From Raillietiella orientalis (taxonomy: Eukaryota), in assembly GCA_036172245.1 (NCBI GenBank), contig JAYWIR010000066.1:1-64000 (forward strand): a DNA stretch of 64,000 nucleotides, read 5' to 3'. The notes under the pieces are model-generated. The model had not been told where the DNA came from and did not search any database. It saw nothing but the letters and a program-made list of their open reading frames with translations. This document shows, piece after piece, positions 3,255 to 30,372 of the stretch (the stretch's first letter is position 1; each line of letters opens with the position of its first letter). The translations under genes were made by a program, and so were the position numbers.

Positions 3255-3940
3255 TGTGTGGAAGAAGCAAGCGAGAAGACGCCACTCTACGAGGAGGAAT
3301 GAGCGTGGGTCCCCATGTGTGTGGAAGAAGCAAGCGAGAAGACGCCACTCTACGAGGAGGATGAGCGTGGTCCCCATGTGTGTGGAAGAAGCAAGCGAGA
3401 AGACGCCACTCTACGAGGAGGGATGAGCGTGGGTCCCCATGTGTGTGGAAGAAGCAAGCGAGAAGACGCCACTCTACGAGGAGGGATGAGCGTGGGTCCC
3501 CATGTGTGTGGAAGAAGCAAGCGAGAAGACGCCACTCTACGAGGAGGGATGAGCGTGGGTCCCCATGTGTGTGGAAGAAGCAAGCGAGAAGACGCCACTC
3601 TACGAGGAGGGATGAGCGTGGGTCCCCATGTGTGTGGAAGAAGCAAGCGAGAAGACGCCACTCTACGAGGAGATGAGCGTGGGTCCCCATGTGTGTGGAA
3701 GAAGCAAGCGAGAAGACGCCACTCTACGAGGAGGGATGAGCGTGGGTCCCCATGTGTGTGGAAGAAGCAAGCGAGAAGACGCCACTCTACGAGGAGGGAT
3801 GAGCGTGGGTCCCCATGTGTGTGGAAGAAGCAAGCGAGAAGACGCCACTCTACGAGGAGGAATGAGCGTGGGTGCACATGTGTGTAGAAGAAGTATGATG
3901 TCACGAGGATTAAAGAGTGTAGGTCCACATGTGCGTAAAA
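3255..3940. repeat. 63-bp minisatellite, about 10 near-identical units plus a degenerate one
   Basis: Unit TGTGTGGAAGAAGCAAGCGAGAAGACGCCACTCTACGAGGAGGGATGAGCGTGGGTCCCCATG in head-to-tail array with 1-3 nt indels and no spacers. Confidence 0.97.
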
Positions 3941-5879: not shown

Positions 5880-5885
5880 TTTATT
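5880..5885 (-). terminator. Candidate polyadenylation signal (AATAAA) of the prohormone-4 homologue
   Basis: tttatt on the plus strand, about 55 nt downstream of the stop codon. Confidence 0.55.
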
Positions 5886-5938: not shown

Positions 5939-6138
5939 CTAAGGAGAATCCAAAAAGCCGGTGTGGGTCAATTTCTGCAGGAAGTATTTGAGATCTGCAA
6001 GTTCCGAGTCCTTGAAGCCCATGCTTTTCAGCATCCCGACATCACCGCGGAGGATGGCAACGAAAACGCTTCGCAGATGATTGATATCTGATCTCATCAA
6101 ATGCAGAGCTGCTCCGAAATCTTCAATGGTCACAGACT
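5939..6138 (-). CDS. Prohormone-4 homologue exon 4 (terminal coding exon)
   Basis: Polypyrimidine acceptor tttctctttttctcctcgaacag|. Encodes ESVTIEDFGAALHLMRSD...THTGFLDSP followed by TAG. Confidence 0.96.
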
Positions 6139-9100
6139 CTGTTCGAGGAGAAAAAGAGAAACAAAGTTTTCTTACTCGAATCATCTCAGGTTTTCACATG
6201 TGCGCTTTGACCTGTTGAGCGAGTTTGACGCACATATGCGTTTCTTATGGATTTCTAATGAGTTTTTTTTTTTTTTCACTTTCTCTCATGTACCGAGTTT
6301 CTTATTTTTGTAAAATAACGAAATTTTTATGACAAATTTTTTTTTTCCATCGGAATTTACAATACATCTGCCGTGCGTTTGACGTATCTGTTCGTTTTCG
6401 CCAATTTTAATAACGCCCCTACGGGTAGAAGATCTTATTGAGAAAGTGACTCTCTTAGCAGGTTAAACAGCTCGATGAGAAATGGTTACAGCACAAGGGA
6501 TGTAAAACGAAGGGTTATGAATTTTTTTCTTGATCTACCCTTCCGCCGTCACAGCAGTGCCTTTCAGCAAGGGTATGAACAAAATGGCTCAGAGAGAATC
6601 CAACGGAGCTTTGACATTTTTTTTTTGAAAAGGAAAGGACAAAAAACCGGCCATCACATTCCATTTCGGGATTAACAGTGTTCCCACTCCAGGTTGCGGG
6701 TTTGGCACCACTGCCTTTGGTTTCTTCAAAGCACCCCGTATTTCCCTTGCTAGCGCAAAGTTTACGAGATGCTAGGAACTGAAGTTTGCAAGGGGGAAAA
6801 AAAAAAAACTACTGGAGGAAGCTTTCGGACGGTGTGTCCACCGGCCGGTTTCTTGCAACGCAACCTTGCCCTTCGCAGACCTTCGTAGGTCAAGCATTTT
6901 CAGAGGTTGCGCACGAGGCCGCCGCGAAACGCTCGTTTCCAGCTTTTCACCCTTTGTATCTTCTATTGCGTGATCGCGGGCTACGGAATGGGGAGTAGGG
7001 GCGGTGCCACGAAATCTCCTGTCAAGGGTTTGCGAATTCCCTTTCCTCACCGATGGTGGTCATCGATGAATCCGGCATCAGCTGTCCAGTTCAATCAATT
7101 TTCGCACAGCTCCTTCCAATGAAGGCAAAGAAGCCTCGAAAAGAAAATCCCTGGCAAGAAGATGCAAATTTCACCTTTTTGTTTGAAAATTCCGGATTAT
7201 GTGTATGTACTCCTTCACCATGCAAGATATTTTTGGCGCTGAGTGTACCTCCCGGTCATGCAAACCTCTATTATTTTGCATGTTTTCTTTTTTAAACATG
7301 GAAGCAGCTCATTGGGGATCATTGAGGACGTCGTATTTGAAGGTATCCTTCGCTTTGCTGATCAAGACCCAAGGATATCTGACATCCTTGTCTGACATTA
7401 CTTGAGGGCGAACAATCTTGCATCAACAAACCAACTCTTCTTGCTCCTTTAGACGTGCCCATGCGCGGACTTCCTTAGTCAAAAGGCGAAAGGATTATGC
7501 CCTGGAATGGGGACGGGAGTTGTTCCTTCAGCGTCTGCGGATGCCTCCAGATGCGCAGACATCCTCCTTCCCGTGTGTGATCATCCCAAGTTCGTCCGTG
7601 GTCGCAAGTTAATCCACGAGGGTGGACTGTCTCAGCGAAACAGTCCCCGCCCCCGTGGAAAAGATACACTGGGCTCGCAAATCGAAGACACACAGAACCT
7701 AATCCTGTGCGGTGTTCCTCTTCGAAGACCCCTCGTCTCTAATCTGCGAAGGAAGACCTGGAGTGCTAATGGAATCCTGCGTGTGACGTCTTCATTCCAC
7801 CCACCACCAAGGATAATCCCACGAAGTTTCTCCGCGGAGAGTGGGGAAAGCACGGAGGGATGCTTGTTGCCCTATCCAGTTATCTCGAGGTCATCTTCCG
7901 AGATGGAAAAAGCTTGAAACTTTGGAACAAGGTCAGGAGAGTGGATGAAATGAAATTGAAGGCACGAGAAGGATTTTTTCGATCGTGCAAGAGGAGGGAT
8001 CAATGACTTGCCGAATGGAGAAGCTGAAAAAGTAGACAAGTCACAGCACTTTGGGGAAGACTTGGAAGGAGGACTTTGAGAAGAATGGCTACAGGGAAGT
8101 CGGATGCCAATGAAGCCTCGACAATGCATCCGCCTTTAAAAAAAAAAAAAGAAAAACAAGAGGAGGAGAAAAGTTTCCTGCTTCCAAGGAAGATTCAGTG
8201 AGGATCACAAACAGTTCTTCCTGTGAAGGTGATGCCAACGTGACTTCTCGCAACCCCGTCACAAGGCTTCATTCCTGGAGCTCTATTTTGAGTCCCAGTC
8301 CATCTCCTGAACCGGAAACTGTGAATCGGCGCACCAAGTGCAACGATTTAGAAACAGACCGCTCCGCAGTAGTGCCGCGTTACTTCTAAATCTGCTACTG
8401 AATCTACTGCTAAGTCTACTGCCACGGAATTCACTTCCGAGTCTACCACTTCAGGATCTGCCTCTAGATCTGCTTCTGAAGCTGCTACTTCTAAATACGA
8501 CGGCAACCTTCTTTACGAAACATCCGCTCTTCTTAGTATTCAAAATCGGAAGGAGTGGAGCAGAGGATGCCGAGTTATTTGCTTAATGGATCGACACCGA
8601 AATACATCTAAAATCCATTCGCTCACGTGACATTAATCCAGATGACGGTGAATAAATAAGCAAACCTGCGTGAGCATCTAAAATTAAGTGAGGTGCTTTT
8701 CGATTAGGGTTGCTCATTGCTTCTTTATTTTGCCCTGTTGTTGCACCTTTTCCATTCTATGGCTGTGCTTACATCCCATTTTTACGGACGCTGCGTCTTT
8801 CACGCACTGCACCTCATGTATCATTCTGACATCGGGGAGAGAGGGATGCCATGGTTACTTCCTCTTTATCAACACGAGTCTGAGTACTTCCTACGAAACC
8901 GTTAAGACCGTTTCCAACGGGGCACACAGGAGCAGCAACTTCAGACGGTGCGATCAGTTCCTCAATATTTTATTTTCAATTAACAGCTGAATTAAAGATT
9001 GAGTAGCTGGTGCGGTGTATTCACCATTCTATCGCCGCTCGCGACTGACGCCCTACCCACGTGGATCGGCAGTTAAATGCAGCCTTGGCAAAAAGCGCTT

Positions 9101-12100
9101 TTGATCTCCCGGGTAGGGGAGAGGAGATTTTTGAAAAAAATGGATAAAGAAAGCAAATCCTTGAGGAATGATCAGTAAGTATGCAACTCTCGGAAAATTC
9201 CAGGTATCTTTCCGTGTCCATTCGCCTCGAGTCATTCTCTTGCGCGCTTTCCTTTTGATCGCTCTCTTTTTGTCCGATACGGCACGGAGCCACCGAGCTA
9301 CACGCTGAAAGAGATTTCGATGAGGGCGCCACCGTTCGTTTCCTAAGGTTCGGCACGCTTCCGCCCATTCCTACCTGTTCGATGTTAGGGAATGAAAGAC
9401 CACAAGGGACGTTTTCCATACCTGAAAGTGCTATCGCGACTTTTTCGACTCCGCCCAGGGGGGCAAGGGCATCCCTCGCCTTGGATCCGAAGAGTTTCTG
9501 CAAGAAGTTCGGACCGTGGCTTTCGATGAGCGACTTCAGGAAGCTCGCCGTTTCCTCCACCGGAGGGCGCCTTGCTGCAAAGACAGGATCCGCAGCTGAA
9601 CGTGGGCAGGCAAAAAGAGGGCTGGGCCGTCGTCGATCGCGGGTTCTCCGCACGGGGCACCGCCTGCTTGCCGGACGGCTCGCGGCGTCGAGGATGTAAG
9701 CGGCGCTTCCTCCTCGCAGCGAGCGGAGGGCACGCGTGGCCCAACGCACCGCGTGCGACGGCGGAAAGCTGGTGGTGCCTCGAGCATCCACCAGCTGGGC
9801 ACATGTCCGTTTGTCCCTGTTTTCCGATCCCTAGAAGCGTGCGCTGGAGTCCACCCGAAGTCGGACAGTGCAGCACCTGCAGTGCAGGACCACCGCAACG
9901 AGGCAGAGAACGAAGGTGCTGCGTGTGTGTGCGCAAGAGGAGGAGGGAAAGAAAATGCATTCTGGAAGATGCGGCTCCTAAAAAGACGCGTCCTCTTCGT
10001 TTGGGGAAAGCTTGGAGCCGCCGTGCAAGAGGGTCCTCAGCACCGTGCCTTCGTGGGCAGGGGTGATCCCCAGGAAGTTTGCGACCCAAGCCGGTAGGTC
10101 GGGGCGCTCGGCAGCGAGCCGTGGTCGCATTTCGACTGGGCACTTCCCTAGCGGGCGGCGGCTCCGCTTCGCACCCTTCGGGTCGAAGGGGGCTGCCGAA
10201 GAGGCGGCCGCTCCTGGGGTCGGCCGGGATCACCAGGCTCCCTAATTGTTGCGCACGGACGCCCTTCTGTTGCCAGGGCTCTTTCCGGAGCCTATGCAAA
10301 ACACCTCATTTAGATAAGCGATTTAGATCAGGTTAATGATCCAGGAAAAGTCGTTATGTGTCTCCCGAGTGCTTCGGCAGTCTATCTCTCCCTCTCGTGG
10401 GATCGAAGTGTGTTTTATGATAGGAACGCCAGGGATTTCTGTGTGCGCGTGTGTGTGTCTCGAGGAAGAGGGGAAGGATGGTTGTTCCTGCCCGCCTCCT
10501 TTCGCTGCTCCGAACCCGGGATGCCGCGACGCTTCTTGCGGAATGGATCCTCGCGTTGATGTTTCATCCCAGCTCGAGTTCAGAGAGACTCCACCCCGAT
10601 CCCTGGACACGGAGACGAGCGGGAGAGATTGAAACGGAAAGGGTGCATTCAGACGGGAGAGAGAGGCGTGTGAGATGCGGCGGTTCGCGTGCATCCTCTC
10701 GCTGTTTTCATGCTTATTCGGAGGGAAAGGGGGACCAAAGAAGGAAGAGGAGAAGAAGAAGAGGAAGGGGGAGAGACCGAAAACAACAATCAGACATTCC
10801 GTGCTGGCCGGGAAGAAGATTCCCGTGCACGCCGAGGAACCTGAATTCGGTTGGCTGAGGAATACCGGGATACTTCGGGTCCGGCTCCGCTCGCTGTACA
10901 TGGATTCACCCGCAGTCGTAATTTTCAATTAAGTGCGATGACGTAGAGGCACAGAATTACCTCCTCATCATCTGGGGAATTGATCCTCACAGTGTACAGA
11001 GGATGCGAGAATGATGCGAGGGATTAGCTGACTCCGGAGGCTTGGGAAATGCACGAGGAGCTCGCATGGAAAATGGAAGGGAGGAGACCAAAAGAGATTA
11101 GAAGATGCTTCAGTCTCTTTCTTTCTTTTCTTTTTTGAAAGCGCACTGTTTCTTCTCCTTTTCCTATCCTCAAAGTGCACGCTAATGGAGCCACCGAATA
11201 GTTGCTGTTGTCGCCTTCGATCGGCTGCATAAAGAAACCTCTGACGAAGTCTTGTCGTTACTGCCCTGTTCTTCAGCGGATTGCCCTTTTAGAAGAGCCA
11301 ATCCCGAAAGGAGATTTCGCCCCCCAAAAGCGTCGCGATGGCAACAAAGGTGCAGGGGGCAGCAAATAGGGGAAAAAGCAGAGACGAAAAGGGTTCCAAA
11401 AATGGGTCTGGCGGGAAAAAGTTCCCCCGCTTCTTTTGTTTTGTTCTCGGTGGATGAGACTGTGTCTCACTTTCGTAACCCCTCGCTCTCTTCCTCCTCC
11501 TCCTCTTCTTCTCCAAAAAAGCAAAAAAACAAAAAACAAACAAACCTGGAAAGCTGCATCATTATTTGCTTCTCTCGCAAAGAACGACCCCGTCTGTTCG
11601 GCGAAATGATCCTGGGAGATTCCTCCGAGAGATGGGAATCTGCCTCAACAGAAAATTGCTTGTCTCTTATTCACTGAGAACTCCGAGGACCATTCCCAGA
11701 GGATAGGACGCTTCCCCCCCCCCCATGCAATCGTAGGTGTGCCTTCCCGCTTCGATGTTAACAAATGAGTGCCGAGTCCTTGGGGCGCGCTGCTCGAGAC
11801 TCCGGGCGTCAAGAAACGAAGGCCGGAAGGAAGGGAAAAAGGAAAAGAAATCCAGTGGAGGAGTCGGCGATCCGTCAACCTCCTGCCGCGCTCAGTCCTC
11901 GGCGCGTGGCCGTGGACGTCCACCTCCTCGTAGTCGCCCCCAGGAGCGCGCCAAAAGGACCCACCAAGGGAAATTCCTGCACTGGAAAAGAGAGAAAAGG
12001 GAAATGCAAGTCTGCGGGTTGAGACGGGGAACCTGTCCCTACCGCAGACCTCGGATAGCTGCCCCTTTTCCTGCCGGGGGATCGAAACTCGGGACAGCCA

Positions 12101-15100
12101 ATCCCACCCTTTCGTGCGGTTTCATCTTCGCCCGGAGGACGCAAGGGTCCCTTGAGAGGGCAGCTGAAAACCGGAAGGAGGCAGCCTCGAGTCGCATCGC
12201 CTACGCTTCAGCCTTCGATGCCTCGCTCCAAGGCCCAACGATGGCCAGGAGAGGGGCAATCCCACGTGTCCACGGAGAGCATCAGGTGTCCCTGGGTCAG
12301 GCAGCGTTTCGAGGCACAACCAAACCAGGAAACGTTCCGGTTTTCAGCTGCCCTTCCTGGAAGCTTGTTCCTTCTCGGGGAGCGAATATCGTCGAGAACT
12401 CCCCGGGTCGCTCGCCTCTCGGAGGCGCCAACCTAAACCATCACCGCCCTCTTCCGAACAAGCGCGAAAGGGTGGGCGGGCCACTTCGGATTTTGCGTCC
12501 CCCGGCAGGGAAGATGGCAGCCATCCGAGGTCTGCAGTAGGGACAGGTGCTCCGACCACAGAGCCGGTCTGTCGTGCCAAGGCTCCGCCTCTCAAAGAGA
12601 ACTCAACCTCCTCTCCCCTCCCGTCTCGGAGGGAGGGTGAGAGGAGGTTGAGTAACGCCCTCCTTCCATCCCGCAACCGCCGCGAAAAAGCGTGGAGCTC
12701 TCGGTCCAGGACATCGCCCAAGAGCAGCCACGTCGTGACAGCAATGGGGACCAGAAGTCTCTCGACGCTTCCGGCGGAGCACTAGGGAACTGCAGCTCTA
12801 GGCGGTCGGTCAACAAGAGAACGCGGCGGTCACACGCGCGTTCCACGCTGTTGATTTTTTTTTTCTTATTTTTTTTCCCTCCCCAGGGGCTCGGAGGTCG
12901 GGACGACGACCACGCTGGTGGCCTTTTGTGCGCTTCCCGGCGACCCGCATGACGCTCGCAGGGTCACGCGCAACCCATCGCCACACAAGGAGACGGGTTC
13001 GGGTCGGGAGTGACACCCCGCCTTCGGGGAAGAGGGTGCCGATAAGGACCACGGATGGAGCGGCGGCTCCTGCGAGAGATGTCTCTCCCTCCCTCTCCCC
13101 CACCGGAACTCGAAATCCAGGAGAACTGCTCCTGCAGAGGGAATGCTCGAGCGCACCTTCGCTGCTGTTCTCGCCGATGCGGGCGGCGAAGTCAGGGCCG
13201 GAACGAGTGGGACACTTCCTGCGCGCGGGAAGGCAGGGATGCCACATGTCCCGCCTGCGGAGGAGCGGAAGTCCGCTTCCCGGCCTCCTTGGTGCTGATC
13301 GAGCGGAGGCATCGACCTCGGTTTCCGACCGGAGGGTGCGCGCTCCTCTCCTGCTGCTGCTCTGGCGCTCCGGATGACCCTCAGCGGTGACCACCCTCTG
13401 CGTGACTCAGATCATCGTGACGCGACACCTCTCAACGTCCTCTGCCAACAAGCCGAGTGCCCTGGACAGTCAGGAATGGGAATCCCTCCCGACATCCCAA
13501 CTCTGGAAAGCTCGCCCGAGAGCCGCGCGAGAACCCAATCTGCGCGGGCGGGGTGAAGGTGAGGTCACCTGAAGCATCCTGCGCGGGACGGCCGGCATCG
13601 GTCCCTTCCCTTCATCGCTTCTGGGCTGCTCTTCCCCACATCGCCCTTTTCTCCTGGCGATCGCCGGGTTCATCGTTCCAGCATCCAGCAACGCACGATC
13701 CGATTGGAGGAACAAGAAAAAACCTACCTCACCGTCGTCCCGCGCAGGATGCTGCAGGTGATCTCACCTTCACCCTGCCCGCGCAGATTGGGTTCTCGCG
13801 TGGCTCTCGGGCGAGCTTTTCAGAGTTGCCGTCCGGCAGTGCCCGAGAGGGCAGTAAGGCGGCGGAAGGGGAGGAGGATCCTCAAAGATCTCTGTGGGTT
13901 GACCCCGAAAGAATCCTGGGGTCACTAGGCAGCGAAGGGTGCCGTCACTCTTTCAAGAGGAGGAAAGGAGTCGGCGGTCCCACGGCGAGAACGCGAGAAC
14001 TCTTCACGTGTCATGGTGGCGCCTCTCCCCGACCTACTCGCCCCTGTGGGGTGCACGATCCGACCGCTATCGAGTGGGGGGAAAGCATTTACAGGAGCGG
14101 CGACGGTGGATCCAAGGTCGACAAACGGCAAGGTCAAAGGCCGCGTAAGAACGTACGGACGGTCTGCCGGCCCAGCCTCCCACAAACCCGCGACGACCAT
14201 TCGAGAGGCGAGGAAGAGCCGCAGGCGAGCCATCGACCTGGAGATGAGCCGATGACACGGAGATGAACCCAGGACCCGAAGATGAGCCAAAGGCACGGGA
14301 ATGAGACGAAGGCACAGCGATCAGGCAGCCCACACGGAGATGAGCTGACCACTCAATGATGAGACATTGACGTGGAGATCAGTCGACGTCACGGTGATTA
14401 GCCAAAGACACCGAGATGAGCCGAAGACCCGAACATGAGTCGACTCTACAATGGTCAGTCCACGACACAGTGATGTAGCAAAGGCACGGAGATGACCCCA
14501 TACGAAGACGACCTTCCCTGACCAATACAATGCTGTTGCTTCTTCCGTGGTATCGGAGGCGCCTCGGGCGTGTCCGGGCGCGATCTCTCCTTTCCGCCGT
14601 CCGCTCCCGCCTCGGGCGTCTTCCAGAGCTTGGCGCGCAGCAGCTTTGAGCCCTCACCTGCTACGCACAGCCTGGGGTCCTCGTCGTAGCCGTTGGGGCA
14701 GTCCGGAGAACCGTCGCAGAGGTACTGGATCGCGATGCAGAGGTCCTGACCCGGGCACTTGAACGGCTCGTACAGGACGCACTCGAACTCTTCCTTCCTG
14801 TGGTTGTCTGGAAGACACGACAGAAAAGGGTAAGGGGTAGCTCGAGGTCCAGAAGAGGGAAGAAAGGAGGTCGTCGTGCCAGCAGCCATCCGGGAGACGG
14901 ACGGACCCGCGCGCGAGCGCTCGCGTCCGGCGCTTAGACTCGTAGAGTCGAGTAACCGCTGCTCGCCCTCCCGAAGACCTTCCGAATTTCTCCCCCTTAC
15001 CCTCCCCCACACTTCCGTAAGAAAAACGGCGGCGGCCAAAGTGGTGGAGGGCAGGGACAACGCCTCGCGTCGTGCACGGGCTCCAGCGCATCCCGGTGCT

Positions 15101-18100
15101 CCCTCTGGAAAAGCGGATGCGAGGAAAAGAAAGGAGGGGGCAGAACGCCGCAAGGGAAGGGAAGGGGGGACGCCCCCGCGGGCGCGCGGCACACCGCTGC
15201 CATCGGGCAGCCGAAGGGAGACCGGCGGGGGAAGCCCTGCTCTTGCTCCTCTCCTCCCTCCACGCATCCCGCCTTGTCGCATTCCCGGAGCTACGGATTT
15301 CCCCTGCCTCCCTCCCCTTCCTTTTGGATTCCGCAGGGGAAAGAACGATGCAGAATGACAAGAGAACTCCCTGGGGCAGATCGCGAAAGTTTTCTGGGCA
15401 CTCTCTCTCACGAGAGGTCTCTGAGGACGCCGCACCACTCCTCCAGCACTTAGGACCTCAATCCCCTCCGCCTGCTACACACACACACACACACACACGA
15501 CCTTCCGCGCCGCTAGAATGCCACCCGCCTGCAATTTTGAACCTGCGAGCGTTCGAGCCGGTCCGGATGCGTTCGCGGGGGGGCGCGGCGGTCTGACGGG
15601 CGCGCCTCGCTACTGGTTCGCCCGCGTTGCTGGCTGGAGGATGGGAACACGTTGAGAGTGGTGCGCCGAGCACGCAGGAAGCCGTGCCTGACGTGGACAC
15701 GTGCACTGCATGCGTGCTGCTGCTGCTGCTCGTGCACGCGTGTGCAGGGGCACGTCCGATCGTGTCCTCCTGCACGGTGCTGGCGGGGACCCCCGGGCGG
15801 TCAGCCTGCGCCCCCGCACGGGCGTGGGGAAGGGAAGGGAGGATTGCAAAGAGTCCGCGGAACGTGCGAACCTAAGAGTCGAAGGCGACCCGCGCGCGGC
15901 TCCCGTGAGGTTAACAAGAAAAGTGTCCAAAATATTTATTTTTCATTTCCTACCTCCCGCTCGCGAGATTAAGGGATAGACAGCGGCTATTTGGCGATGC
16001 AATCATCAGTTGTAAATCTCCCATCCAGTGATTCCTTGGGAAATTCCCCAGCAGGCCCTGCTCCTCCTGCACAATACATATTCCGCTTCCTAGGAAACCG
16101 TATGGATGATGCAATTTCGCAGCCCTGATTAGGAGGGAGATGCAGGTACGTTCGCGAGAGAATCGGGGTTTTCCTCTCGAGAAACAGATGAATTCTTCTT
16201 GTTCTCGGGAAAAGGGAAACATTAATATAATAATTGCAACTGTATCTTGGGAAGAGGGAGAGAGGCGTGGACTACTGCACGCCTACCTATCAACGTGTGA
16301 AGCGTTCCGGGGGGGTATTTTACACTGGACACTTTTACGTAAGCACGCGTTTCGGTGTGAGCCATTCGGATGAAAACGGGAAAACGTACGGTGGACCACT
16401 CTGTTTACAAGGGGGAGGAGGGAAAAAAATTCCCGCAAGTTCACGTGGCGCGCGGAGCGAAAACGGATAAGGCCGAAACGCACGCGCTCCACGCTCCAGG
16501 GCTTCATTGGGCTGTCGGTCGGTCGCCCATTCATTTTTGTGACGTTTCGCGCACGCAGATCTCGATCGGAGTTTCCATTGGGTGGCGGCAACAATGGAGA
16601 AGCCTGCCACTGTTGCGTCACTGAGCTGATTGGGCGCCAGCAGCCCACGAGACTCGATCGCGGGAAGCGCGAGAGGGGGTGCGCCTTCCGCGAGTCCCCG
16701 TGGCGCCTGTGCCTGATGGTCCTCGAACAACCCCAACGGCGAACTGACCCCATTGGGTCCCGTAGTTTCTGCGCTGTGCGGCCGCCCCGTTTTCCCCCTC
16801 AACCGTGAAAACGACAAACACCGGCAGGGGATACGCGATATCCCCAGGAGGTGACGCGGGCCCACGCACGTCCCGTGGACTTTGTCCGTGTGGACTTTCC
16901 CGGTGATGCAGGAGTGATGAGAGGATGAACCGTCCTCCGTCTGTTTTTGAATGCTGGGGAACGTTCGCCGGCATGAAAACCTCCACCAAGTGTGCGTAGA
17001 GGTTTTTTCTTCTTCTTCTTCCCCCGTCCGATCAGCAAGACATCGGTCCAGGCTGTCGGTGGCTGCTGTTTGCAGTGGGCGAAGGAATCGATGCTGTCCA
17101 TCGAGTAAACAGCAAGTCAGAGGATGCGAGCCGTCGCTTCCTGTTTCTGGAACCTCGAAAACCGAGGTTTGAAGTTCAGAACCTCGGGCAGTTGCAAAGT
17201 TCATCATCGAAGAGAAATCCTTGCGTCTCCAGAGCGATTCCCTGGTCATCGAAGGCTATCTGAGGTTTCTTGCAGGATGCTTCAGAGACGCTTCCGAAAT
17301 TGAATGAGATCGGAACGGAGAAGGGGGGAGGGGGGAGGACAAAACTGCTCAGCGGATTCCTGATTGGCTGAACAATTTTTCCACCGTCCTCCTGGTCACC
17401 ACAGCTGAGCACAAAAAAAAACATCTTGATCTGAAGACCAGGTGATTTGCTTCTCTCAAAGGAAACAGCTTGGACCATCGGTCTTCAAAGGTCTTCTGTG
17501 GAAGCTTATCATGGGAGCACAGCAAGCAAATTTCTTGAAACCAGGGGACCAGTGAATAGCTGAGAATACTTCTCAGGTAACATTCACGTCTCACTGGTGT
17601 TCCTTGGACCATCGGATTCATCATCGGACGTTTCGGTTTCAACCCGAAACTTTGACCTTTCTTGCCTACGGATCCGCTCTTTTCTTAAGCATCTACTTCC
17701 GGGTATGCTGACGTGTCCCATTTCGGAAACCCGCATGTGTTTGGTCGACCTGCATGCATCCCCTCATGACCAGACGGTCTCATCTGAGCAGCCATTCCAT
17801 TCCAGAAGGGAATTCTCCGAATATTCAACCCTAGATCGGTTGCCAGCAACTCCCTCCGGGTGTCCTGGAACCGTCATGGTTCGCAGGGCAGTTTCTACGG
17901 GAAGATTATGGAATCGGATATGGTGCCAGGTATTCTCTGCACTCTTTAAATCCCTGTTCCCTGGATGAGAGGGCTTTCCTTGGAGAATTCACCGGAAACG
18001 GGCGCAGTCTGGTCGCCGGCCACATGCCGAACTCGCCTCGGACACCGCCCCGTCCAGGTGGATACCATCAATCCTCAAGTTGTTTCCTCCTTCAGTATTC

Positions 18101-21100
18101 CCCCAGTGAAAACGTGATGCATGATGTCCCCGGGAGTCCCCGGTTGTGACGGCATCCCTCCGGAGAAGTGCTCATCCTGTTTGCATCCGCCTGCTCCAAG
18201 TGTGACTGTCGCAAAGCGAGAGAAAGACCGCGAACAGACGCGGAGAACACCAAAGGAAGACACCTGCAGCGGGGGAGCAAGCTCTCGATCTTCGGCCACC
18301 TTCGTTCCTTGGCGAACGTCTCCGATCGCCTTGGTGACCAGCACCAGCAGCAAGGTGCCCCGTGCCGTGACGAGGCCTTCGACAGCGACGATTTCGGCTG
18401 CTTTTCAATGGATGCAGGGGTGGCAGGTGAGGGAGAAGGAAAAAAAAAAAAAAAAAAAAAACCACGACTGGTTTGATGAGGGAGCCGGATGTCGGACGTT
18501 GACTCGTTGGAGAACGTTCTTCTTCTTCCTCTGGAATCTGATTCGTGGGGTTTCCGGAGAGCGCCGCAACGAGTCGTCCTGCTGTCGGAGGTGCGGTTGC
18601 GTGTAAGCACTGTGCACCCGGCAAAAAACACCGGGAATTTTCACGGGGGTCCTCCGCTTCGGCCTGCATTCCGAAGGCGCTCCTTTCTATATGCGCTCGT
18701 TGCATCCATCCGAGATCCACGAAAAGGTGCTCGAAACACGCGAACACCTCCTTTGATTTCGTGTTTGCCAGTGCGTGCGCTTGCCGAGCTGCGCACCGGC
18801 ACTGAACTGCTCAGCCAAGTGCACCTCTCACTACCCACTTGCCAGAGGGCAGCCCGGAAGTGTGCTCCTACGGTCCCAGCGCCAGGATGCAAAAATGGCT
18901 TCCGAAGCTAAGAGTGGTTAAGCGGGGGCATGTGCTTGGGACACGCGTCCTTGAAACGCAATCAGAAGATCGATTGGAGGTCACCGCCGCCCCGCCGGAA
19001 TCGCCGCCGACGCAGTGCCTTCCCCGTCCCACATCCTCTCCGGAACCCCTGCCCCCCCCCCCCTTTTTTTTTTTTTTTCCTATCCCCTTTTTTAGCGAGC
19101 TTTGGACTGCTTGCATCCTCGTTTCCTTCCTGTTTATTCTTCCGCTGTGGTTCGCTCGAGCGGTCCAAGTGGAGGCAGATCAGACGTCAAAGCAGTATCC
19201 AACACAAAAGCACGTTCAATCTAAAAGCCATTAGAAACGGGAAAACGTTAACGATCAGCGCGTTTTGCGTGTACATCGGGGGAGGGGGGAAAGGAGGAGG
19301 GGAGGGGGAGAACGGGAAGAGGACAAGCACCTCCTTAAATGCAAAAGCAAACAATGGAGGAAAACGCATCCCTCTTCTCCCTCCCGCTCCGGCCGGACTG
19401 CTCGGAGGAGGAAACACCCAGGGACCACGCGCTCATTCCGCGGTGTTTTTTCTTCCCTTTTGCTTTACCTTCATTATTTCTTTCGATGGCTTTCGACGCC
19501 GCTCGACGGCCGAAGCGAAATCGGCTGCTGGGTCCCTATCCTGGTTTCCAGAGAGGACGAAGAGAGCGTGCAAGGAGAGCGAGCCCAGAGAACAGGGGGG
19601 GGGGGGGGAAATGCTCTCGCGTGAGAAACTCCATCCTGAATTCCCCTGCAGGGCCGCCGCGTTACCCGGGGAAACGAACGCACTCGAATTCTTGACGTTA
19701 ATGGGGCGGGTCCGAGCATTTCCCCGAACGCGATCCTCCCCGGAGAAGAAAAAGAAGAAAGGAGCGAACGATCTGTCTTCCCGCTGCAAGAAAAACACGC
19801 AAAACGTGCGTGGCTTCCCTCCTCAGTTTCCTCTGTCTCGAGGGTTGGTTGTGGGAGGTGGGAAGGTGGAGGGGGCGGAGAAGGGAATGGTTGAACCCGA
19901 GTGAGATGGGGTCCAGCCTTGGAGCGCTTGACTGACCGCAAGCACGTGATTTATCCTCCTGGTTCCAGACATCGCCTTTCCTTTCGCTTTAACAGGATCC
20001 AGAAGGCTTTCGTATTCTCCTGTGGTTTCCGGGAGAGGAACCATCCCCACTCATCCGTGCCAGTGGTTTTTCTTGCGCGATGCACGGAGCGCTCCGGGTC
20101 GAATCCGGCCGCCAAAGACCCAAAGCCAACATCTGTCAACGAAGGACCCGTGCTGCCGTCGGAATGGCTCCGCAGCTTCGCCGGGCATTTCGATTCAGAA
20201 CGCTCCAGGCTTCAGGGGGTCTTTGCCCATTCAGAACTTCCCTTTTCCTCTGACTGCGGGTGCTGTCCGCCTCGGTTTGGAAAGCACGGCGCTGCCGGCA
20301 TGGATTCCTCGAGACGGCGGTGGTGGACAGCGTTCCTCTCCCCGGATTCGACGGTTTCCTTTTTTCTCTGTAGATGACCCCCCACATGGGCCCGATCGTG
20401 CCCCCACTTCCGCCCTCCCTGATGCGACCTCGGTGGTGTTCTCGCGAGCCGACTGTCGGTGAATTAGGGAGCTCGCATCACCCCATTCCAGCGTAAGCTC
20501 GTGCTCGCTGCCGTCCTCCGAGAGGCGGGGATAACGAGGAAGGGGCGGGGTAGCCGCAGGCAGAGCAACGCCTTTCCAGGGATCGCCGCTGCACACCCTA
20601 CAGAACTTTCCAGGGAACCTGTCCCCCGCTTTGGGGAGCAGCAAGATGGCCCCCACCGGAACACCGTGTAGAATAGGGCCTGGCTCGGCATCATACAGGA
20701 TCTACATGCGAAGAAGGAGAGGAAACCGATCGCTCCGTCCTATTCTCTCCTTATTTGCTTACTACCTTCGTTGTTCTTCCCCTCATCCCAAAAGTAAATC
20801 TTCCTGTAGGCATTTCATGCGATGGGCGCCAATGGAACGGCAGAACCATTTCCCTATTCCTTCGAGTTCGTTCCGCTGTAGATGGGCATCCTTGCGTTGT
20901 CGGGTGAGAAGAACAGAACCCTACAGTCTCTCATCCTAGAGAGACCCCTGGCAACACGGAGCCAACACTTCCCCCCTTTCGAAGTTCCAAGAGAGATAAA
21001 CCCATCCAGCATCCGCACGTCTCCGGGGATGCCTCGGAGGGCTTTGCGACCACGAGAAGTGGGTGAAGAATTTCTTCGTGCTCCACCGCCCATGATCCGC

Positions 21101-24100
21101 ATCGGAGCGCTCCTCCAGCCTCGCCATCCGTGCAGACTGGAGAGGGAACGCTGGTGAACTCAGTGCCCCACTAGCGACAGCTCGCTCCTCTGGTTCCTTC
21201 CTGGAGGCCACACAGCAGCAGTGTGGCCCTCCATAGACTCTGCAGTCGTGGGTCCTCTACCATACGCTGCTCCGCCGAATGGACCTTGACGGAGGGAAGA
21301 TCGCTATGCAACTCGGCAATCACACGAAGAAAACTTCGTCGTCCATCTCCGATCTCTTCAGGACGAATCCGGCCGCCGAAGACCCAAAGCCCGCAGACTC
21401 CCAGCATCCTTCAACGAAGGATCCGTGCTGCCATCGAGGTGGGTCTTCAGTCTCGCCGAGCATCACTGTCTCCGGCCTTGTTCCGAGTCAGCTTCCTCCT
21501 CGCCGCCACGCGGCGCTCTTCGACCACCGTGCCCGGCGGCACCTCTCGCGGCAGCCAGCGCTCTTATTCTGCGAGCACGGCGACCTCGACCTTCCTCTCC
21601 TCCGCAGGCCCCCTTCTCCTTCCTCCTGCACACCGAGACTCCAGCAAATTCCTGACTGCATCCTGTTGCGATTCAGGAACACGTGTGCATCGCAACACTG
21701 TCCGATCAGTCTGCCCCCTCCAATCACCAGCTAAGTCTCGTCCGATCGGAATGTCCAATGCTCTCCAAGGGACGGGAATCCCAGATCCTTCTTGGGAAGG
21801 AGAAACCCCTGCGTCGAAAACGCCCGCTGGGCAGGGTCCCGAAGTGGTTGGCGCAGTCGTGGCTCGGTGGCCACACAGACGGCACCCATTTCTTCGGGAG
21901 CGTTCCTCTGATATTCTCGGTCCTCTGACGTATTCGGAAAGACGGGATCTCCCTGGAGACCGGGTGCTCCGGGAAAGAGGGGGAGCGGACGTGCGAAACA
22001 GACCGAAGAGGTGGTCAACGATCCGAAGGGAATTCCTCCGACTTTTGGGCTGCCACCAAACAGATCGGTCGAAGGTCGGGCCGGGTTCTCCCTTGCCTCT
22101 CGAGGACGACCCAATGGCGGGAGTTGTCCGGTTTGTTGACCTCTTTCCCTTCCTTTCCCTGATTCTTCTGACCCGGTTTCCCTTGACGCTCGGGGCAGCT
22201 CAGTGGCTGTTGCAGCGGGAGAGATTCGTTGCGGACAGGAATCCTGCTGGGTCAAAGGAGAGGCGCCCTGCTCGCATCGGCGTGTACCCGGATGAAGGGT
22301 ACCTTTTGCACGTGGTCACGTCGCAGGGAGGGGTGGGTGGGAGTTGAGTCCAACTTGCCTTCCCTTGCCCTCGGACAAACTACCTTCGGGCACAGAGCAC
22401 AGCATATCTCCACCCTCTCCGCCTCGGACCCTTCCTCCTCTTGACGAGGGCCGCGCCTCTCTCCCGTCATCGGCCTCGGCAGCTGCAGCAGCTGCTACTC
22501 CCCTTGCGGTGGACGTCTCAAGACGGATCCGGACGCGAGCCCAACTGTCAGGGACCATGAAAGACCTCCAGCAGATGACGCCCGGTCCCGCCACGGGAAG
22601 CGAGGAGGTCCGGAAAGGTGCGGTGGGGGCGGTTCTACCTGGAGAGGGTGGGTGGAAGGCACTGAGGCTTTCCGCTGCTGCCTTTCCTCTTCTTCCGCCC
22701 GGGGCGAAGAGTCGCTCGCCCGGCGGTGCGGCGGACCGCAGCCTGCTGGACGCTCCCGGGCTCCTTCTTTCGACGCGGAGGAAGAGGGACTGACGGGTGG
22801 GGGGAGGAGGAAGACAGAAAATTCTCAGATACTTCTGTCCGAGGCAGCGCCGCTGCACTTCGCAGAGGTCCGACAACGCCCGCCGGCAGAGTCCCCGTGC
22901 CAACAATCAAGCCTCCCATCCGATCGCCACGGCGGGCTCTTTCTAGCCAGACCCCTCTGCTGCCTCGCAGGGAGGCAGGCGCCACATTGATGCGCGCCCC
23001 TTCCCGTCCCTGCCCCGTGGGCACCCTGCACCCTGCGCAGTTCCGATACCTCGCCCCCCCCCGAGTCTCCTTACCCTCCACTCCCTTATTCTGCCTGCCT
23101 GTCCCTGCGAAGGTCCTCGAATCAGAGATCCCGCACTGTCCCGAGGCATGCCTGGTGGGTGCGCACCGGACCGTGGCCCGCATGACCCCCGTGGCTTTGG
23201 AGCGTGCCCTACGGAAGGACTGGAGTTTCCCGGCGAACCCTTCGCTTTCTCTGGCAGTCAGGAAGGGGAAGAGGCTATTCCCTCGGCCCCCGAGTGGAGA
23301 GGACGCGAGCCGCTTCTGACCTCAGGTCGTCTACCGCCCAACCGCGAGCCGCACCGAAGCGGCGAGAGACGACGGCGGGAGAAGAAACGCGCTGCCGAGA
23401 CGCACGGGGGACTCGCGGGGAGCGGACGCTGCTCCTGCAAAAGGGACAGACGAGGTCGCGCAGAGGTCCGTGGGGCGGCGGTGCCCTTTCGGAACCGCCC
23501 GGAAGTCGGAGAGTCGACCCAGGCCCCCGCATCCCTGTAGCCTGGCCCGTTCTTCCCTTTCGATGACCTCCTGGAGGAGGCGAGGACGCACCTCGGCTCC
23601 CCGGGGCGGGATCGGAGGCACCGCAGGCGGAAGGAAAGAAAGGAGAACCGTGGGCGGTCCCGCTTCTCCCCGAAGGAGTCCCAGGAGATTCGGCATCCTA
23701 GCCGCGAGGGCAAGCCAGCAGTCAGGAACGGGCTATTCCAACCCAGGGCTCTGCGCAGCGGAGGGCCTTCTGGGATTTTCCTCGGTGGGGAGGGAAGAGG
23801 AGGAGGGGCAGCCGAGGACACCCGACGTAGCGGGGCAGGGAAATAAAGTTCTTCCCAGACTCGCGCCGGGAAGAGACGAAGCTTCCTGCTCCTCTCTCCC
23901 CTGACAGACCCGAAAGTCACCAGATTCTCGCCTCCACGATGGCCGGAGGAAAAAGAAAATGGGCGCATGGCCCTCTCCAGAGGGAGGAGAGAAGCCGGTT
24001 GGGGAAGGGTAGCCAAGGGGGGGGACGAGAGGACGGGGAAGCAGTCGAGAGTGTCCGACTGTTCCTATCCTTCCGACGGACCCGGGATTGATAGAGCCCT

Positions 24101-24677
24101 GGGAGCAGAGACCAACTGCATGCCATCCGAGGGGGTGCGAATTTCCCCGGCGCTTCCCGACCCCTCCCATCCCTTCTCTCGCGCCCTTTTTCCTCCCCTT
24201 GCTTTGCGAAGGACCGGACGGGCACGCGCGCGAGCGCCACCGCATGGGTGGCAGAAGGTGGGACGGAAGATGACGCGCAGGAGTCTGCTGCGAACCACCC
24301 TCTTCCTTTCACCCCCTTCCATCATCGTTCCCGTCGCCAACCCCGGGGTGTGTGGTGGGGAGGGAAGGGGGCGGAGGCACGACCCGTCGCCAAGGAGACG
24401 CTGCCCGGAGCGCGAGCGCCTCGAGCGGTGCTCGTCGCCGGGCGAGGACAGCGACGGCAGCGCGGCGAGGACGCACCTCGTCCGCTTCCCCACGGTGAAA
24501 GGGGCGCGTAGGGAGAACCCTGCATCGGGTCGACATGCGCATGGGGACGGGGACGGAGCGCCTACCTCTGCCGTCCTGCTGATTGAACACGTGGAATAGC
24601 TCCATGCACGTCGCCAGCGACGCCACGTGGAGGAAGACGACTGCGAACACCACGCTCCACTCCATCTTCATCCTCAT
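5939..24677 (-). CDS. Prohormone-4 / IDLSRF-like neuropeptide precursor homologue; spliced CDS join(24677-24566,14807-14658,9574-9422,6138-5939), 204 aa
   Basis: Four exons with canonical GT-AG introns, all phase 1, splice into one 615-nt open frame: MRMKMEWSVVFAVVFLHVASLATC-MELFHVFNQQDGRDNH-RK-EEFECVLYEPFKCPGQDLCIAIQYLCDGSPDCPNGYDEDPRLCVAARRPPVEETASFLKSLIESHGPNFLQKLFGSKARDALAPLGGVEKVAIALSESVTIEDFGAALHLMRSDINHLRSVFVAILRGDVGMLKSMGFKDSELADLKYFLQKLTHTGFLDSP. Exons 2-4 match arthropod prohormone-4 as recalled (YEPFKCPG, RPPVEETASFL, LGGVEKVAIALSES, TIEDFGAALHLMRSD, GFLD). Confidence 0.93.
9422..9574 (-). CDS. Prohormone-4 homologue exon 3
   Basis: 153 nt. Acceptor tctttgcag| and donor AG|GTATGG. 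Encodes ARRPPVEETASFLKSLIESHGPNFLQKLFGSKARDALAPLGGVEKVAIALS. Confidence 0.96.
13498..13828. repeat. 93-bp inverted repeat pair (MITE or foldback-like) in intron 2
   Basis: 13498-13590 is the reverse complement of 13736-13828 with about five mismatches, separated by a 145-bp spacer. Confidence 0.9.
14243..14506. repeat. Degenerate 19-bp minisatellite, about 14 units
   Basis: Period 19: GATGAGCCGATGACACGGA, GATGAACCCAGGACCCGAA, GATGAGCCAAAGGCACGGG, GATGAGCCGAAGACCCGAA and so on. Confidence 0.85.
14658..14807 (-). CDS. Prohormone-4 homologue exon 2 (LDL-receptor class A domain)
   Basis: 150 nt. Acceptor tcttccag| and donor AG|GTGAGG. Encodes the six-Cys LDLa motif CVLYEPFKC...CIAIQYLCDGSPDCPNGYDEDPRLC. 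Confidence 0.96.
17100..18400 (-). mobile_element. Highly decayed L1/Tx1-like RT fragment in intron 1
   Basis: KAIGDVRQGTKVAED resembles SAIGNLKRRKAPGED. VAGDQTAPVSG resembles ISPEQTYAVPG. DQEDGG resembles PRQDGG. Confidence 0.4.
19950..22340 (-). mobile_element. Two decayed L1/Tx1-like fragments in intron 1
   Basis: LLLPKAGD (RT motif) near 20630 and IRVHADA (YADD-like) near 22285. The LWVFGGRIRP block is present twice (about 20100 and about 21365). Confidence 0.45.
24566..24677 (-). CDS. Prohormone-4 homologue exon 1 (signal peptide and start of mature peptide)
   Basis: Hydrophobic signal-like stretch WSVVFAVVFLHVASLATC. Donor AG|GTAGGC at 24566/24565 gives phase 1, matching exon 2. The start could be any of the ATGs at 24677, 24671 or 24665. 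Confidence 0.78.
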
Positions 24678-24719: not shown

Positions 24720-24760
24720 GAACTACGAGGCGGGAGGATACGGAGCCCCGCTTTTAACGC
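24720..24760 (-). promoter_or_regulatory. Candidate core promoter of the prohormone-4 homologue
   Basis: TATA-like TTAAAAG (24757-24751) in GC-rich DNA, about 30 nt upstream of an Inr-like GTAGTTC and about 75 nt upstream of the first ATG. Confidence 0.35.
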
Positions 24761-27490: not shown

Positions 27491-28867
27491 TCAGGAGGCC
27501 GAGCCGCCGTCCTGACGCGGAATGCACAAGTCCTCCAAGCGGACTCGGGCCCTCTCGTTGCCCCAAAGGACGATACGGAGGAGGTCCTTCGTCCCATTTT
27601 TGATCCTTTCTGTGGAGGTACAAGCAAAAAGCAGGGGGCGGAGGAAAGGAGCCGCGAACGTGTTCCAAACCGCGGCCCGTTCAGGCAGGAAAAACCTGCC
27701 GCCTCGGAACGGGCCGATCGCCGTCTCTACTTTTTGGAGGCAGCCGGACCACGCTTCCGCAGGGGAGTAGTCCCCCAACGGCACACCAAGGGACTTGAAG
27801 TACCTCACCGTGGGAATCCCCAAACGGACCCAGTCCTGCTGCCCTGCCCACGCCGCACCAACTGGCATCACGGACGACTTCGCCTTGTTCGCCGTAAGTC
27901 CGGTTCCCCGATGCAGCAGGTCGAAGAACTCCTCGACCGCCGCAGCCGGGGTGGACATAGGGAGCAGCAGAAGGTCGTCGGCGTACGCTGAAACGGCCGG
28001 CGTACCGGCACAGTCGTGCGGCAGGTGCGCCAGAGTTACCCTGTACGCTCTCAGTACCAACTCAAAGTAGGTGCTGAAGAGCAAGGGGCTCAGGCTGTCT
28101 CCCTGCCGGATCCCACGCCGCACCGGCACGCCGTGCACGGTCTGCCCGCTGAAAGTAACATTGATGTGCGCGTCGCGCCAGCAGGAGCGCAGATAGGCCA
28201 CTAATGAGGCCGGGAAGCCCAAGCCTTCCAGAAGCTCCAGAAGGAGATTCTGGTCGACGCAATCGAATCCTTTTCGCAAGTCTATTGCGACCGCAAGGGC
28301 TCCCTCCCCCACCCGACCATCCAACCCCTTGCCAGCGCACGCACCGGAATTCCGGCTGCGCACCAAGCTCCTTTCATGTTGGAGCTCTAGCCAGGTGGAA
28401 GCGTGGAACAGGTTCGCCTCCATGCTTCGCCCGGGAACAGCATATGTCTGTTCCGGGCTGATGAAGATGTTGGCAACCCGTCCCAGACGCTCTGCCCACA
28501 TCTTGGCTATCAACTTGGCGTCCGCATTCACTATTGTGATGGGTCGCCAGTTGTTCATGCTCCTCAGATCTCCTCCCTTAGGGAGGAGCCGCACCTTTGC
28601 CGAACGAAACGAGGCGGGAACGTCACATGTTTCGCGTATCAGCAAGGTGAGTTGCTGTACCAGGGGGGTAAGCTCAGCCGCGAAAGTTTGGTAAAACTCC
28701 GCGGGCAGGCCGTCCTCCCCTGGAGCCTTGCGCCTCTTGAGATTTCCGATGGCCGAGAGGATCTCGTCCATCGTGAAAGGCTCGTCGAGGGTCTTTCTCT
28801 CCTCCTCCCCGATCGCTGGAGCGCCTTCCGGGAGCAGGAGTCGTGAGACATCCCGCTCAGGAGGCAT
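27491..28867 (-). pseudogene. Reverse transcriptase domain of the L1/Tx1-like element (458-aa open frame)
   Basis: KAPGEDGLPAEFY, LLPKGGD..NWRPITIVNADAK, QTYAVPGR, IDLRKGFDCVD, GIRQGDSLSPLLF, SAYADD, GLTANKAKS, FKSLGVP and LCIPRQDGG. A frameshift follows DGG (LGLLTLELL continues in another frame). Confidence 0.93.
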
Positions 28868-28955
28868 TCTTGCGTACAGGGAGGAGTAAAAACACCGCAG
28901 AAGACCACGAACCTGAGTGGGGGCCGATCGTCCAGCAAGCCGATCCGGACTGCCA

Positions 28956-29188
28956 GACTAATAATCTGATTGAGACTAGAAATCAATACAATTTGCATAT
29001 GTCCCATCATCTCAACCCCATCTACTCCATTCTCAGCACATTCCGCAACAAAATATTTCCTAATTCAAGCAGCTTCATCGTCACTCTTTCTATTCACCTG
29101 CATTATTTCTAACGCCTTCTCCTCCATCATATCCCCAACTATCTCAATAATCATACTCATAAAATTAGGCATACTACCATTTCATCTC
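28956..29188 (+). pseudogene. ND2: NUMT: nuclear copy of a mitochondrial ND2 fragment
   Basis: Abrupt shift to A/C-rich, G-poor DNA. With the invertebrate mitochondrial code (TGA=W, ATA=M, AGA=S) it reads LMIWLSLEINTICMCPIISTPSTPFSAHSATKYFLIQAASSSLFLFTCIISNAFSSIMSPTISMIMLMKLGMLPFHL, with ND2 motifs W..LEIN, KYFLIQA and KLG..PFH. Confidence 0.92.
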
Positions 29189-30278
29189 GGCCCTTGCTCT
29201 GTACTCCGCTAGCCTGCGGATGTCGGGGGTCCTGGCGTAACGTCGGGCCTGTAGATAAGCCCTTTCGTTACGTACCCCGTCCCCAAATCCCGCAGGTAGG
29301 CGGTGCAGAGGGAACTGGTCGCAGAACTCCTGGACCGACCGCTTAAAGCGGTCCCAATCCTGGAGTGTCCGCAGCCTGAAGCTCCGTATGAACGTGCGGA
29401 GATGTTCCGCCGCGTCCGGGAGCTTCAGCCAGTCCCCTGGGAGACGCCACGCTGACGAGGAGGGGCCCCTGTCGCGCGGATGGATCTCGAGGACTAGCGG
29501 CCGATGGTCGGACAGCTCGCATGGTAACTTGCCGCGCCTGCCCACGCGAGGGCACAGGTGCTGGTCAAGGAACACGTGATCGATACTGTCCTCCATCCCC
29601 GGTTCACTGGCCAACAAGTTACAGGTGTGCACCGCCGTGCACACCTCGTTGACCAGGTCTCGCTCGTGATTCTGCCCATCTGGTTTCAGGCGAACGCTGA
29701 AGTCCCCTGCGACCAGATGGTCATTCCGCACGCTTGCCTCGGTCAGCAAGTCGCGCCGGAGGGCAAGGAAAAATTCTTCCCTCGCGCTCCTGGTCGTCAA
29801 GTCTGCGCCGCTCGGGGCGTACACGTTCGTGACGATCAGGTCGATGGAGTCCGACCACCTGAGAATCAGCTGGCCCACACGACCGTGGTCGTCGAACCGC
29901 ACGCCCGCGCTGTGGCCTCGACGGCTAGCCGAAGCAGGTAGGCAACACCGCAACTCTTCAGTGTCCCACACCGATACCACGGCCGCCCTCCGGAGATCCC
30001 ACCCCCTTCGTATCTTGTTTTCCCCTTTGTCCAGGAACTCTGTTCCCGGATAGTTTTTAATAAACACCCCGGCGCACCCGGGTGATAAACAGCCGCCCTC
30101 CGGAGATTCGTTCGATCTCTTGCGCTTGTTCTGCAGAGATCACGTGGATCTCCTGCAGCAGCGCAAGGTCGAAGGATTCCAGAAGGGCGGCCATGTCTCG
30201 TCTCCTGCCGGCGTCTGTCATGCCGTTCACGTTCCAAACGGCGATGCGCAGACGACAGCGGGAGGCGATTCCCGGCAT
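29189..30278 (-). pseudogene. Apurinic-like endonuclease domain of the L1/Tx1-like element (frameshifted, interrupted)
   Basis: Motifs are split across three ORF-track frames (30057-30692, 29866-30237, 29174-30067). The likely start is ATG 30278 (MPGIASRCRLRIAVWNVNG). Confidence 0.88.
29982..30107 (+). mobile_element. 5'-truncated retroelement 3' tail (94 bp) with 16-bp target-site duplication
   Basis: GCCGCCCTCCGGAGAT occurs at 29982-29997 and 30092-30107. Removing the insert restores EIERISGGRPWYRCGTLKSCGVAYL. The insert has a pyrimidine tract, a hairpin, AATAAA and a terminal GC hairpin. Confidence 0.85.
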
Positions 30279-30372
30279 TACTGCCGGGAAGATGACGGTG
30301 TGGGGGAACCCGCCTCCTCGGAGGCGGGTGAGATGGCCATGGGGGTTTCGGTCTTCAGACCGTAACCACATG

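Follow-up and report, generated by a model that had tools for sequence, protein, structure and literature searches.

Here we report a gene on the minus strand of contig JAYWIR010000066.1 of Raillietiella orientalis that is likely a single and intact orthologue of the prohormone-4 / IDLSRF-like peptide gene of protostomes, in the family of the Caenorhabditis elegans protein NRAP-1. The gene was analysed within a 64-kb window, by which we mean the whole stretch of DNA examined (positions 1-64,000 of the contig). The original prediction, made from the sequence of the window, had described a prohormone-4 homologue in which a conserved scaffold carries a divergent N-terminal peptide, and this was borne out by translated searches (tblastn) and by the sequence identities given below.

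Gene structure

Exon boundaries were read from the letters of the window and then verified by script. The spliced coding sequence is 615 nt long and translates into 204 amino acids with no internal stops, and all three introns are GT-AG introns in phase 1. All parts of the gene lie on the minus strand. Exon 1 (24677-24566, 112 nt) begins with the ATG at 24677, carries three in-frame ATGs (24677, 24671 and 24665), encodes a signal-peptide-like leader and then residues 1-13 of the N-terminal segment (MELFHVFNQQDGR), and ends in phase 1 at the donor GAG/GTAGGC. The predicted signal peptide (24606-24677) would comprise 24 residues if cut after ..SLATC, a heuristic placement to which a cut after ..ASLA is the alternative. 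Intron 1 (14808-24565, 9.76 kb) contains no family-like exon. Exon 2 (14807-14658, 150 nt) follows the acceptor ..TCTTCCAG, itself preceded by a strong pyrimidine tract, and encodes the end of the N-terminal segment (DNH), the dibasic RK site (14794-14799), a linker EEFE and an LDLa module with six cysteines (14665-14781), before ending at the donor GTGAGG. Intron 2 (9575-14657, 5.08 kb) is placed after RLCVA. Exon 3 (9574-9422, 153 nt; acceptor TTTGCAG, donor GTATGG) holds an RR site (9567-9572), then PPVEE, and opens the conserved C-terminal domain with its first helices. Intron 3 (6139-9421, 3.28 kb) falls after ..AIALS, and exon 4 (6138-5939, 200 nt) supplies the remainder of the C-terminal domain with ILRGD (6041-6055), the ending ..TGFLDSP and the stop codon TAG (5941-5939).

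Read from its N-terminus, the protein therefore consists of a hydrophobic leader, the segment MELFHVFNQQDGRDNH with RK, the LDLa module, AARRPPVEE, ILRGD and the C-terminus ...TGFLDSP. The first cysteine is separated from the predicted cleavage site by 22 residues, RK among them, and the C-terminal part of about 117 residues is cysteine-free. Every element of the intact four-exon gene that had been described at the outset, namely the signal-type leader, the 16-residue segment with RK, the LDLa module, the RR site and the C-terminal domain, was found in its place. Two flanking signals can be read from the letters: a TATA-like TTAAAAG (24751-24757), 74-80 nt 5' of the ATG, which is a possible core promoter, and a putative AATAAA polyadenylation signal (5880-5885), 54 nt 3' of the stop.

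The intron positions can be set beside those of other family members, which are cited here by P numbers. The window gene lacks an intron after ..HLMR, unlike some insects, in which the read-through forms P0079 and P0082 suggest one at that point. The fragment P0090 turns non-homologous after the same ..IALS with which exon 3 of the window ends, which suggests that the exon 3/4 boundary is common to both. According to the available text of PMC7294237, an alternative EFLa exon is joined to prohormone-4 after RLCTA in Hemiptera and Locusta, and the exon 2/3 boundary of the window, after RLCVA, corresponds to that same junction. No EFLa-type exon, searched for as EF[LIVM]G[KR], occurs in any frame of the window.

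Membership of the prohormone-4 family

The LDLa module of exon 2 matched Pfam PF00057 (Ldl_recept_a) with an E-value of 2.7e-8 and 34.3 bits, against a cut-off of 24.1, and its six cysteines align with those of the family. When 23 family proteins were compared by tblastn with the whole window, the best E-values were 9e-21 for exon 2, 2e-25 for exon 3 and 1e-28 for exon 4; the remaining 36 matching intervals in the window all had E-values of at least 0.03, leaving exons 2-4 as the only significant matches and no second copy within the 64 kb. Exon 4 alone matched 82 proteins at E-values of about 1e-22, with 75% identity to insects, and the named proteins among these 82 are IDLSRF-like peptide or prohormone-4 entries from many insect orders. 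For the spliced model the best identity to an insect member was 79.5% over residues 47-202, and to non-insect-like members identity was 56-70%. Both the exon 4 match and the match over residues 47-202 take in the conserved cysteine-free C-terminal domain, which is present with its characteristic ending ..TGF[LFMV]x. At the level of sequence the LDLa module also retains, besides the six cysteines, the calcium-type residues D..D..DE (CDGSPDCPNGYDED). Its acidic motif reads NGYDE; most insects have DGYDE, and the bee-like P0061 has NGYDE as well.

The architecture is the same as that of insect prohormone-4, for example in the honey bee (IDLSRFYGHFNT), with 75-80% identity from the LDLa module to the C-terminus. 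The window protein differs from the insect precursors in its peptide, MELFHVFNQQDGRDNH-RK in place of IDLSR[LF]YGH..-KR, in having RR for KR before PPVEE and ILRGD for VENGD, and in two extra residues at the C-terminus. Four marine members all have AARRPP (P0202, P0168, P0084 and P0087), and two of them start with MEL (P0202) or VEL (P0168). The oyster Cragi-prohormone-4, as described in the available text of PMC8398477, shares with the window protein a signal peptide, short N-terminal peptides, a six-cysteine LDLa module and a long cysteine-free C-terminal part; unlike the window protein, it is lophotrochozoan, has a second short peptide, PYLLS, and is much more distant in sequence.

Homology to NRAP-1

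A profile built from 32 family members matched 8v14_A, the chain of C. elegans NRAP-1 ('NMDA receptor auxiliary protein', NMDA standing for N-methyl-D-aspartate), with an E-value of 3.8e-62 between profile positions 37-200 and chain residues 11-168. The individual exons match the same chain collinearly: exon 2 at residues 19-59 (E 2e-9), exon 3 at residues 62-110 (E 4.9e-14, its sole match among PDB sequences) and exon 4, weakly, at residues 116-167 (E 0.057). For structural comparison an AlphaFold model of the locust homologue P0039, computed from a 32-row family alignment, stood in for the spliced window protein. This model has a mean predicted local distance difference test score (pLDDT) of 86, with values above 90 across the LDLa and helical parts, and its Foldseek search of the PDB returned one significant match, again 8v14_A, from the entry titled 'Structure of NRAP-1 and its role in NMDAR signaling' (E 5e-14; 40% identity over 176 columns; template modelling score 0.82, normalised to the target). 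C. elegans NRAP-1 and the prohormone-4 / IDLSRF-like precursors of arthropods and molluscs belong to a single family.

In the available text of a 2024 article in Cell Reports (PMC11531325), NRAP-1 is described as a secreted protein, made of an LDLa module and a helical domain, that gates NMDA receptors, and NRAP-1-like proteins are reported across protostomes having NMDA receptors. The same text reports that the disulfides and calcium site of the LDLa module are essential, that a change of the worm acidic motif DEYDE to DFSDE abolishes NRAP-1 function, that exchanging either terminal region, N or C, between the worm and fly forms of NRAP-1 alters receptor desensitisation, and that fly and honey bee homologues partially rescue worm mutants. 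Because the family is homologous to NRAP-1 over its whole length, the suggestion that the LDLa and C-terminal scaffold is the functional product, made at the outset as one of two readings, gains support, and it fits the role published for NRAP-1 in the portion of that paper available.

The likeness between the window protein and NRAP-1 as described there (8v14; PMC11531325, available text) extends to secretion, a short variable N-terminal segment, a single LDLa module and a C-terminal domain of seven helices that lacks cysteines. There are also differences. Identity to NRAP-1 is only about 40% (as measured for the locust homologue); the LDLa motif of the window is NGYDE, with N as its first residue, where the worm has DEYDE; and, unlike in NRAP-1, a dibasic RK stands within the N-terminal segment of the window protein, so that the N-terminus may be cut off. 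The term 'prohormone' is absent from PMC11531325, and a literature search returned no paper using both 'NRAP-1' and 'prohormone' among the searchable papers.

The N-terminal peptide

Set against the insect IDLSR[LF], MELFHV, the hexamer that follows the predicted leader, keeps the L at position 3 and has M in place of I, E in place of D, F in place of S, H in place of R and V in place of L/F. Across the family the hexamer follows the pattern hydrophobic, acidic, L/F, any residue, basic, hydrophobic, and MELFHV is conservative at five of these six positions. The replacements also have precedents among family members, with H at position 5 in P0088 and P0098 and V at position 6 in P0098 and P0168; directly after the leader, P0202 begins with MEL and P0168 with VEL. 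About four additional residues follow the hexamer in the window, after which ..G-R-D-N-H-R-K aligns with the insect ..G-H-L-N-A-K-R. The peptide does not match the canonical expression [ILV]DL[STANQ][RK][LF], and the dibasic site is present as RK. The earlier description of the peptide as rewritten was thus an overstatement, given the conservative hexamer and the similar starts of P0202 and P0168.

To place the peptide, we surveyed the N-termini of the 67 fetched members with an initial M and no fewer than 20 residues ahead of the LDLa module. The canonical motif was found in 49 of them, a leader followed by a different peptide in 14, and an apparently mis-predicted N-terminus in the other 4; the complete peptide of the window is absent from all fetched members. 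The available part of the supplement of PMC7294237 gives the peptides of Daphnia magna (IDLMKLLDQKHRSF-KR), the scorpion Centruroides sculpturatus (IDFSRIFQHNSANV-KR) and Folsomia candida (IDLQRLYDMQKT-KR), which share only ID[LF] and then diverge. The window resembles these non-insects, as presented there, in that the peptide varies beyond its first three residues, and differs from them in that theirs still begin with ID[LF]; compared by eye, the Daphnia peptide and that of the window are conservative over ten positions. The premise that this peptide is well conserved in arthropods holds for the insects only, given the 14 surveyed members with a different peptide and, so far as the supplement shows, these three species. 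The unusual peptide of the window is best regarded as a lineage-diverged form of the family's N-terminal region, which is variable outside the insects.

The honey bee counterpart of the peptide has been detected by mass spectrometry. So has the oyster N-terminal peptide MSVDFSRL, according to the available text of PMC8398477.

Rate of evolution

A maximum-likelihood tree of 68 rows places the window protein inside a tight arthropod-like polytomy, and no well-supported small clade contains it. Its terminal branch measures 0.39, against a median of 0.024. Private substitutions were counted over 39 unique core rows, in columns whose conservation among the other rows is 95% or more; the window protein has 11, two of them due to how the C-terminal tail aligns, P0087 has 18 and P0085 has 12. 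The whole protein, then, appears to evolve faster than the insect members, and from these counts it would be ranked as a fast-evolving member of the family, not the most divergent one.

The long terminal branch and the 11 private substitutions could also be taken as marks of a divergent paralogue, with a canonical IDL-type copy elsewhere in the genome and the window copy either serving a new ligand or role or drifting; duplicated prohormone-4 genes are on record in cone snails (PMC12621736, available text). Set against this are the equal or greater divergence of other non-insect members, the intact state of the six cysteines, the acidic calcium ligands, the splice sites and the reading frame, and the lack of a second copy within the 64-kb window, and we regard a paralogue as improbable. 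Still less can be said for a decaying pseudogene that happens to look intact: the raised substitution rate is all that would speak for it, and the locus has 615 nt with neither frameshift nor stop, canonical GT-AG boundaries at every intron, 79% identity to insects and its structural residues kept, which makes decay scarcely credible. A single intact orthologue accounts better for these observations.

Support for exon 1

Exons 2-4 are anchored by homology, and it is on exon 1 that the reading of the peptide depends. We scanned the minus strand between 14808 and 64000 for ATG-to-GT combinations in phase 1, with filters for a 10-residue hydrophobicity of at least 2.2 and a donor match of at least 6 of 8. 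Only two loci among the 596 combinations passed both filters: exon 1, which was the best of the 596 candidates and has the correct phase and donor, and a locus at 54461. The latter was rejected as a first exon; it lies about 40 kb upstream, on the far side of a retrotransposon, and lacks both a basic n-region and the family motif. The leader of exon 1 has a basic n-region (MRMKM), a hydrophobic core whose best 10-residue Kyte-Doolittle mean is 2.9, and small residues at its end (..SLA / ..ATC, judged heuristically), and in the family alignment the cleavage site of the leader stands directly before the [IVM]-[DE]-L motif.

The hexamer was scored with a position-specific scoring matrix (PSSM) built from 24 family rows, the window excluded, against a background of all 111,467 six-frame hexamers of the window. 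MELFHV scored 3.93, a value reached by 267 of these hexamers (0.24%); the true significance of the match is nearer 1%, because the register of the hexamer was chosen by the aligner. No exon with a canonical IDLSRF motif was found in any frame of the window by motif scan and tblastn, two regular-expression matches having been rejected. Among the candidates discarded in this search, IEMSRF (32489-32506, minus strand) has no leader, comes after a stop and lies past the retrotransposon; SRLFGR (12450-12467, minus strand) falls within intron 2, downstream of exon 2; and a P0084-like tblastn match (23036-23128, minus strand; E 0.13) has an Arg/Gly-rich translation and no leader.

Several observations weigh against our reading of the locus, most of them at its N-terminus. 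The junction of exons 1 and 2 is drawn from sequence features alone. Intron 1 precedes the dibasic site by five codons, where four mis-predicted insect proteins suggest an intron 2-3 codons before the first cysteine, so its position may not be conserved between the window and those insects. The dibasic site is RK rather than the KR typical of the family. By the best-of-family BLOSUM62 score, a weaker test than the PSSM, 5,776 of the 111,467 hexamers (5.2%) do as well as MELFHV, and the corresponding 7-mer test, at 16.5%, is uninformative because its seventh column is misaligned. When N-terminal family sequences alone were used as tblastn queries, exon 1 did not appear in the top 20 matches, the best of which (E 0.022) lay elsewhere in the window. 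Searched together with its three upstream codons against 5.8 billion protein clusters, exon 1 yielded four candidates, none with an E-value of 10 or below; this is a weak blank, as is that obtained with exon 2, for which a database search gave no candidate sharing three words. Beyond the N-terminus, the arthropod affinity of the protein derives from identity and a poorly resolved tree, and a role at NMDA receptors is transferred to it by homology only.

The alternative to which the N-terminal points lead is that exons 2-4 are real and the true first exon is elsewhere, within the 9.8-kb intron or upstream of the window, the sequence MELFHVF.. being an artefact of exon picking. It draws on the failure of database proteins to share exon 1 and of family N-terminal queries to find it, and on the GC-rich character of a region with many long chance open reading frames (ORFs), in which 142 ORFs of at least 145 amino acids include only 2 with a Pfam match. 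Against it stand the scan, which found no better exon and whose only other locus, 54461, lacks the features of the family; the lack of a canonical motif exon in any frame of the window; the fit of the hexamer after the predicted cleavage site to the family PSSM at the 0.24% level; and the correct phase and donor. On balance we consider a misplaced first exon unlikely, and exon 1 as drawn likely to be correct.

Other sites in the scaffold

The RR before PPVEE occurs in 18 of the 90 members that have this site, and AARRPP is found in P0084, P0087, P0105, P0168, P0179 and P0202. The RR site would be a conserved feature of the family, and it is probably not cut, because a proline follows it. At the VENGD spot, where the window has ILRGD, Daphnia has IQSGD and the scorpion VESGD (in the source available for these species), and C-terminal tails past TGFLD are found in several other members. 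The unusual spots that had been singled out in the scaffold, ILRGD and the extra SP, are thus real, and only their uniqueness is lost once such variants, including the Daphnia form in the source available, are taken into account.

ILRGD creates an RGD tripeptide in a secreted protein (6041-6055, minus strand), where a turn joins two predicted helices in the P0039 model; this is probably a matter of chance.

Surroundings of the gene

The window is GC-rich, with a GC fraction of 0.44-0.65 in 2-kb windows, and long frames free of stops are numerous on both of its strands. The two long ORFs with a Pfam match are the LDLa exon and a reverse transcriptase; since these are the only 2 of 142, ORF length is no guide to genes in this window. 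The reverse transcriptase belongs to a non-LTR (non-long terminal repeat) retrotransposon remnant (27494-30776, minus strand) about 3 kb upstream of exon 1, in which a 488-residue ORF matches RVT_1 with an E-value of 4e-20 and two more long ORFs on the same strand (29177-30139 and 30060-30776) have no Pfam match. About 2 kb downstream from the gene is a 63-bp tandem array (3255-3893; 10.2 copies, 97% identity), the source of long, repetitive chance ORFs on the minus strand. Within intron 2, just downstream of exon 2, there is a degenerate 19-bp tandem repeat (14240-14443; 10.7 copies, 62% matches). The window contains no Rfam match and no tRNA.

A model for processing and function

The protein would lose its leader on secretion, and the 16-residue N-terminal piece (MELFHVFNQQDGRDNH) may then be released at RK by a prohormone convertase, a step that is uncertain because RK is less usual than KR. 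The main functional product would be the LDLa module with the helical body, working extracellularly, by homology with NRAP-1, as an auxiliary protein of NMDA receptors. A conserved scaffold with a strongly divergent N-terminus is what the NRAP-1 literature would lead one to expect, the N-terminal region being poorly conserved there. A more speculative extension is that IDLSRF, regarded as an orphan neuropeptide, may arise by processing of an auxiliary protein of the NMDA receptor and not be a ligand in its own right.

The N-terminal module of the window protein shows about four extra residues, F in place of S and H in place of R within the hexamer, and RK for KR. A speculation to which we give a small but real chance is that in this lineage the NRAP-1/prohormone-4 protein as a whole has speeded up and had its N-terminus remodelled by these changes, possibly with a lineage-specific re-tuning of NMDA-receptor kinetics, given that N-terminal swaps between worm and fly change desensitisation (PMC11531325, available text), or with N-terminal cleavage lost and the segment kept on the mature protein.

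Conclusions

For annotation, the locus is well described as a prohormone-4 / IDLSRF-like peptide / NRAP-1-like gene, and a new-hormone label does not fit it. The finding also joins two literatures: the neuropeptide papers see the precursor of an orphan peptide with no known receptor, and the NRAP-1 papers see a secreted protein that gates NMDA receptors, whose poorly conserved N-terminal region tunes receptor kinetics. Natural variants like the window protein could serve as ready-made N-terminal swaps for probing the behaviour of the receptor.

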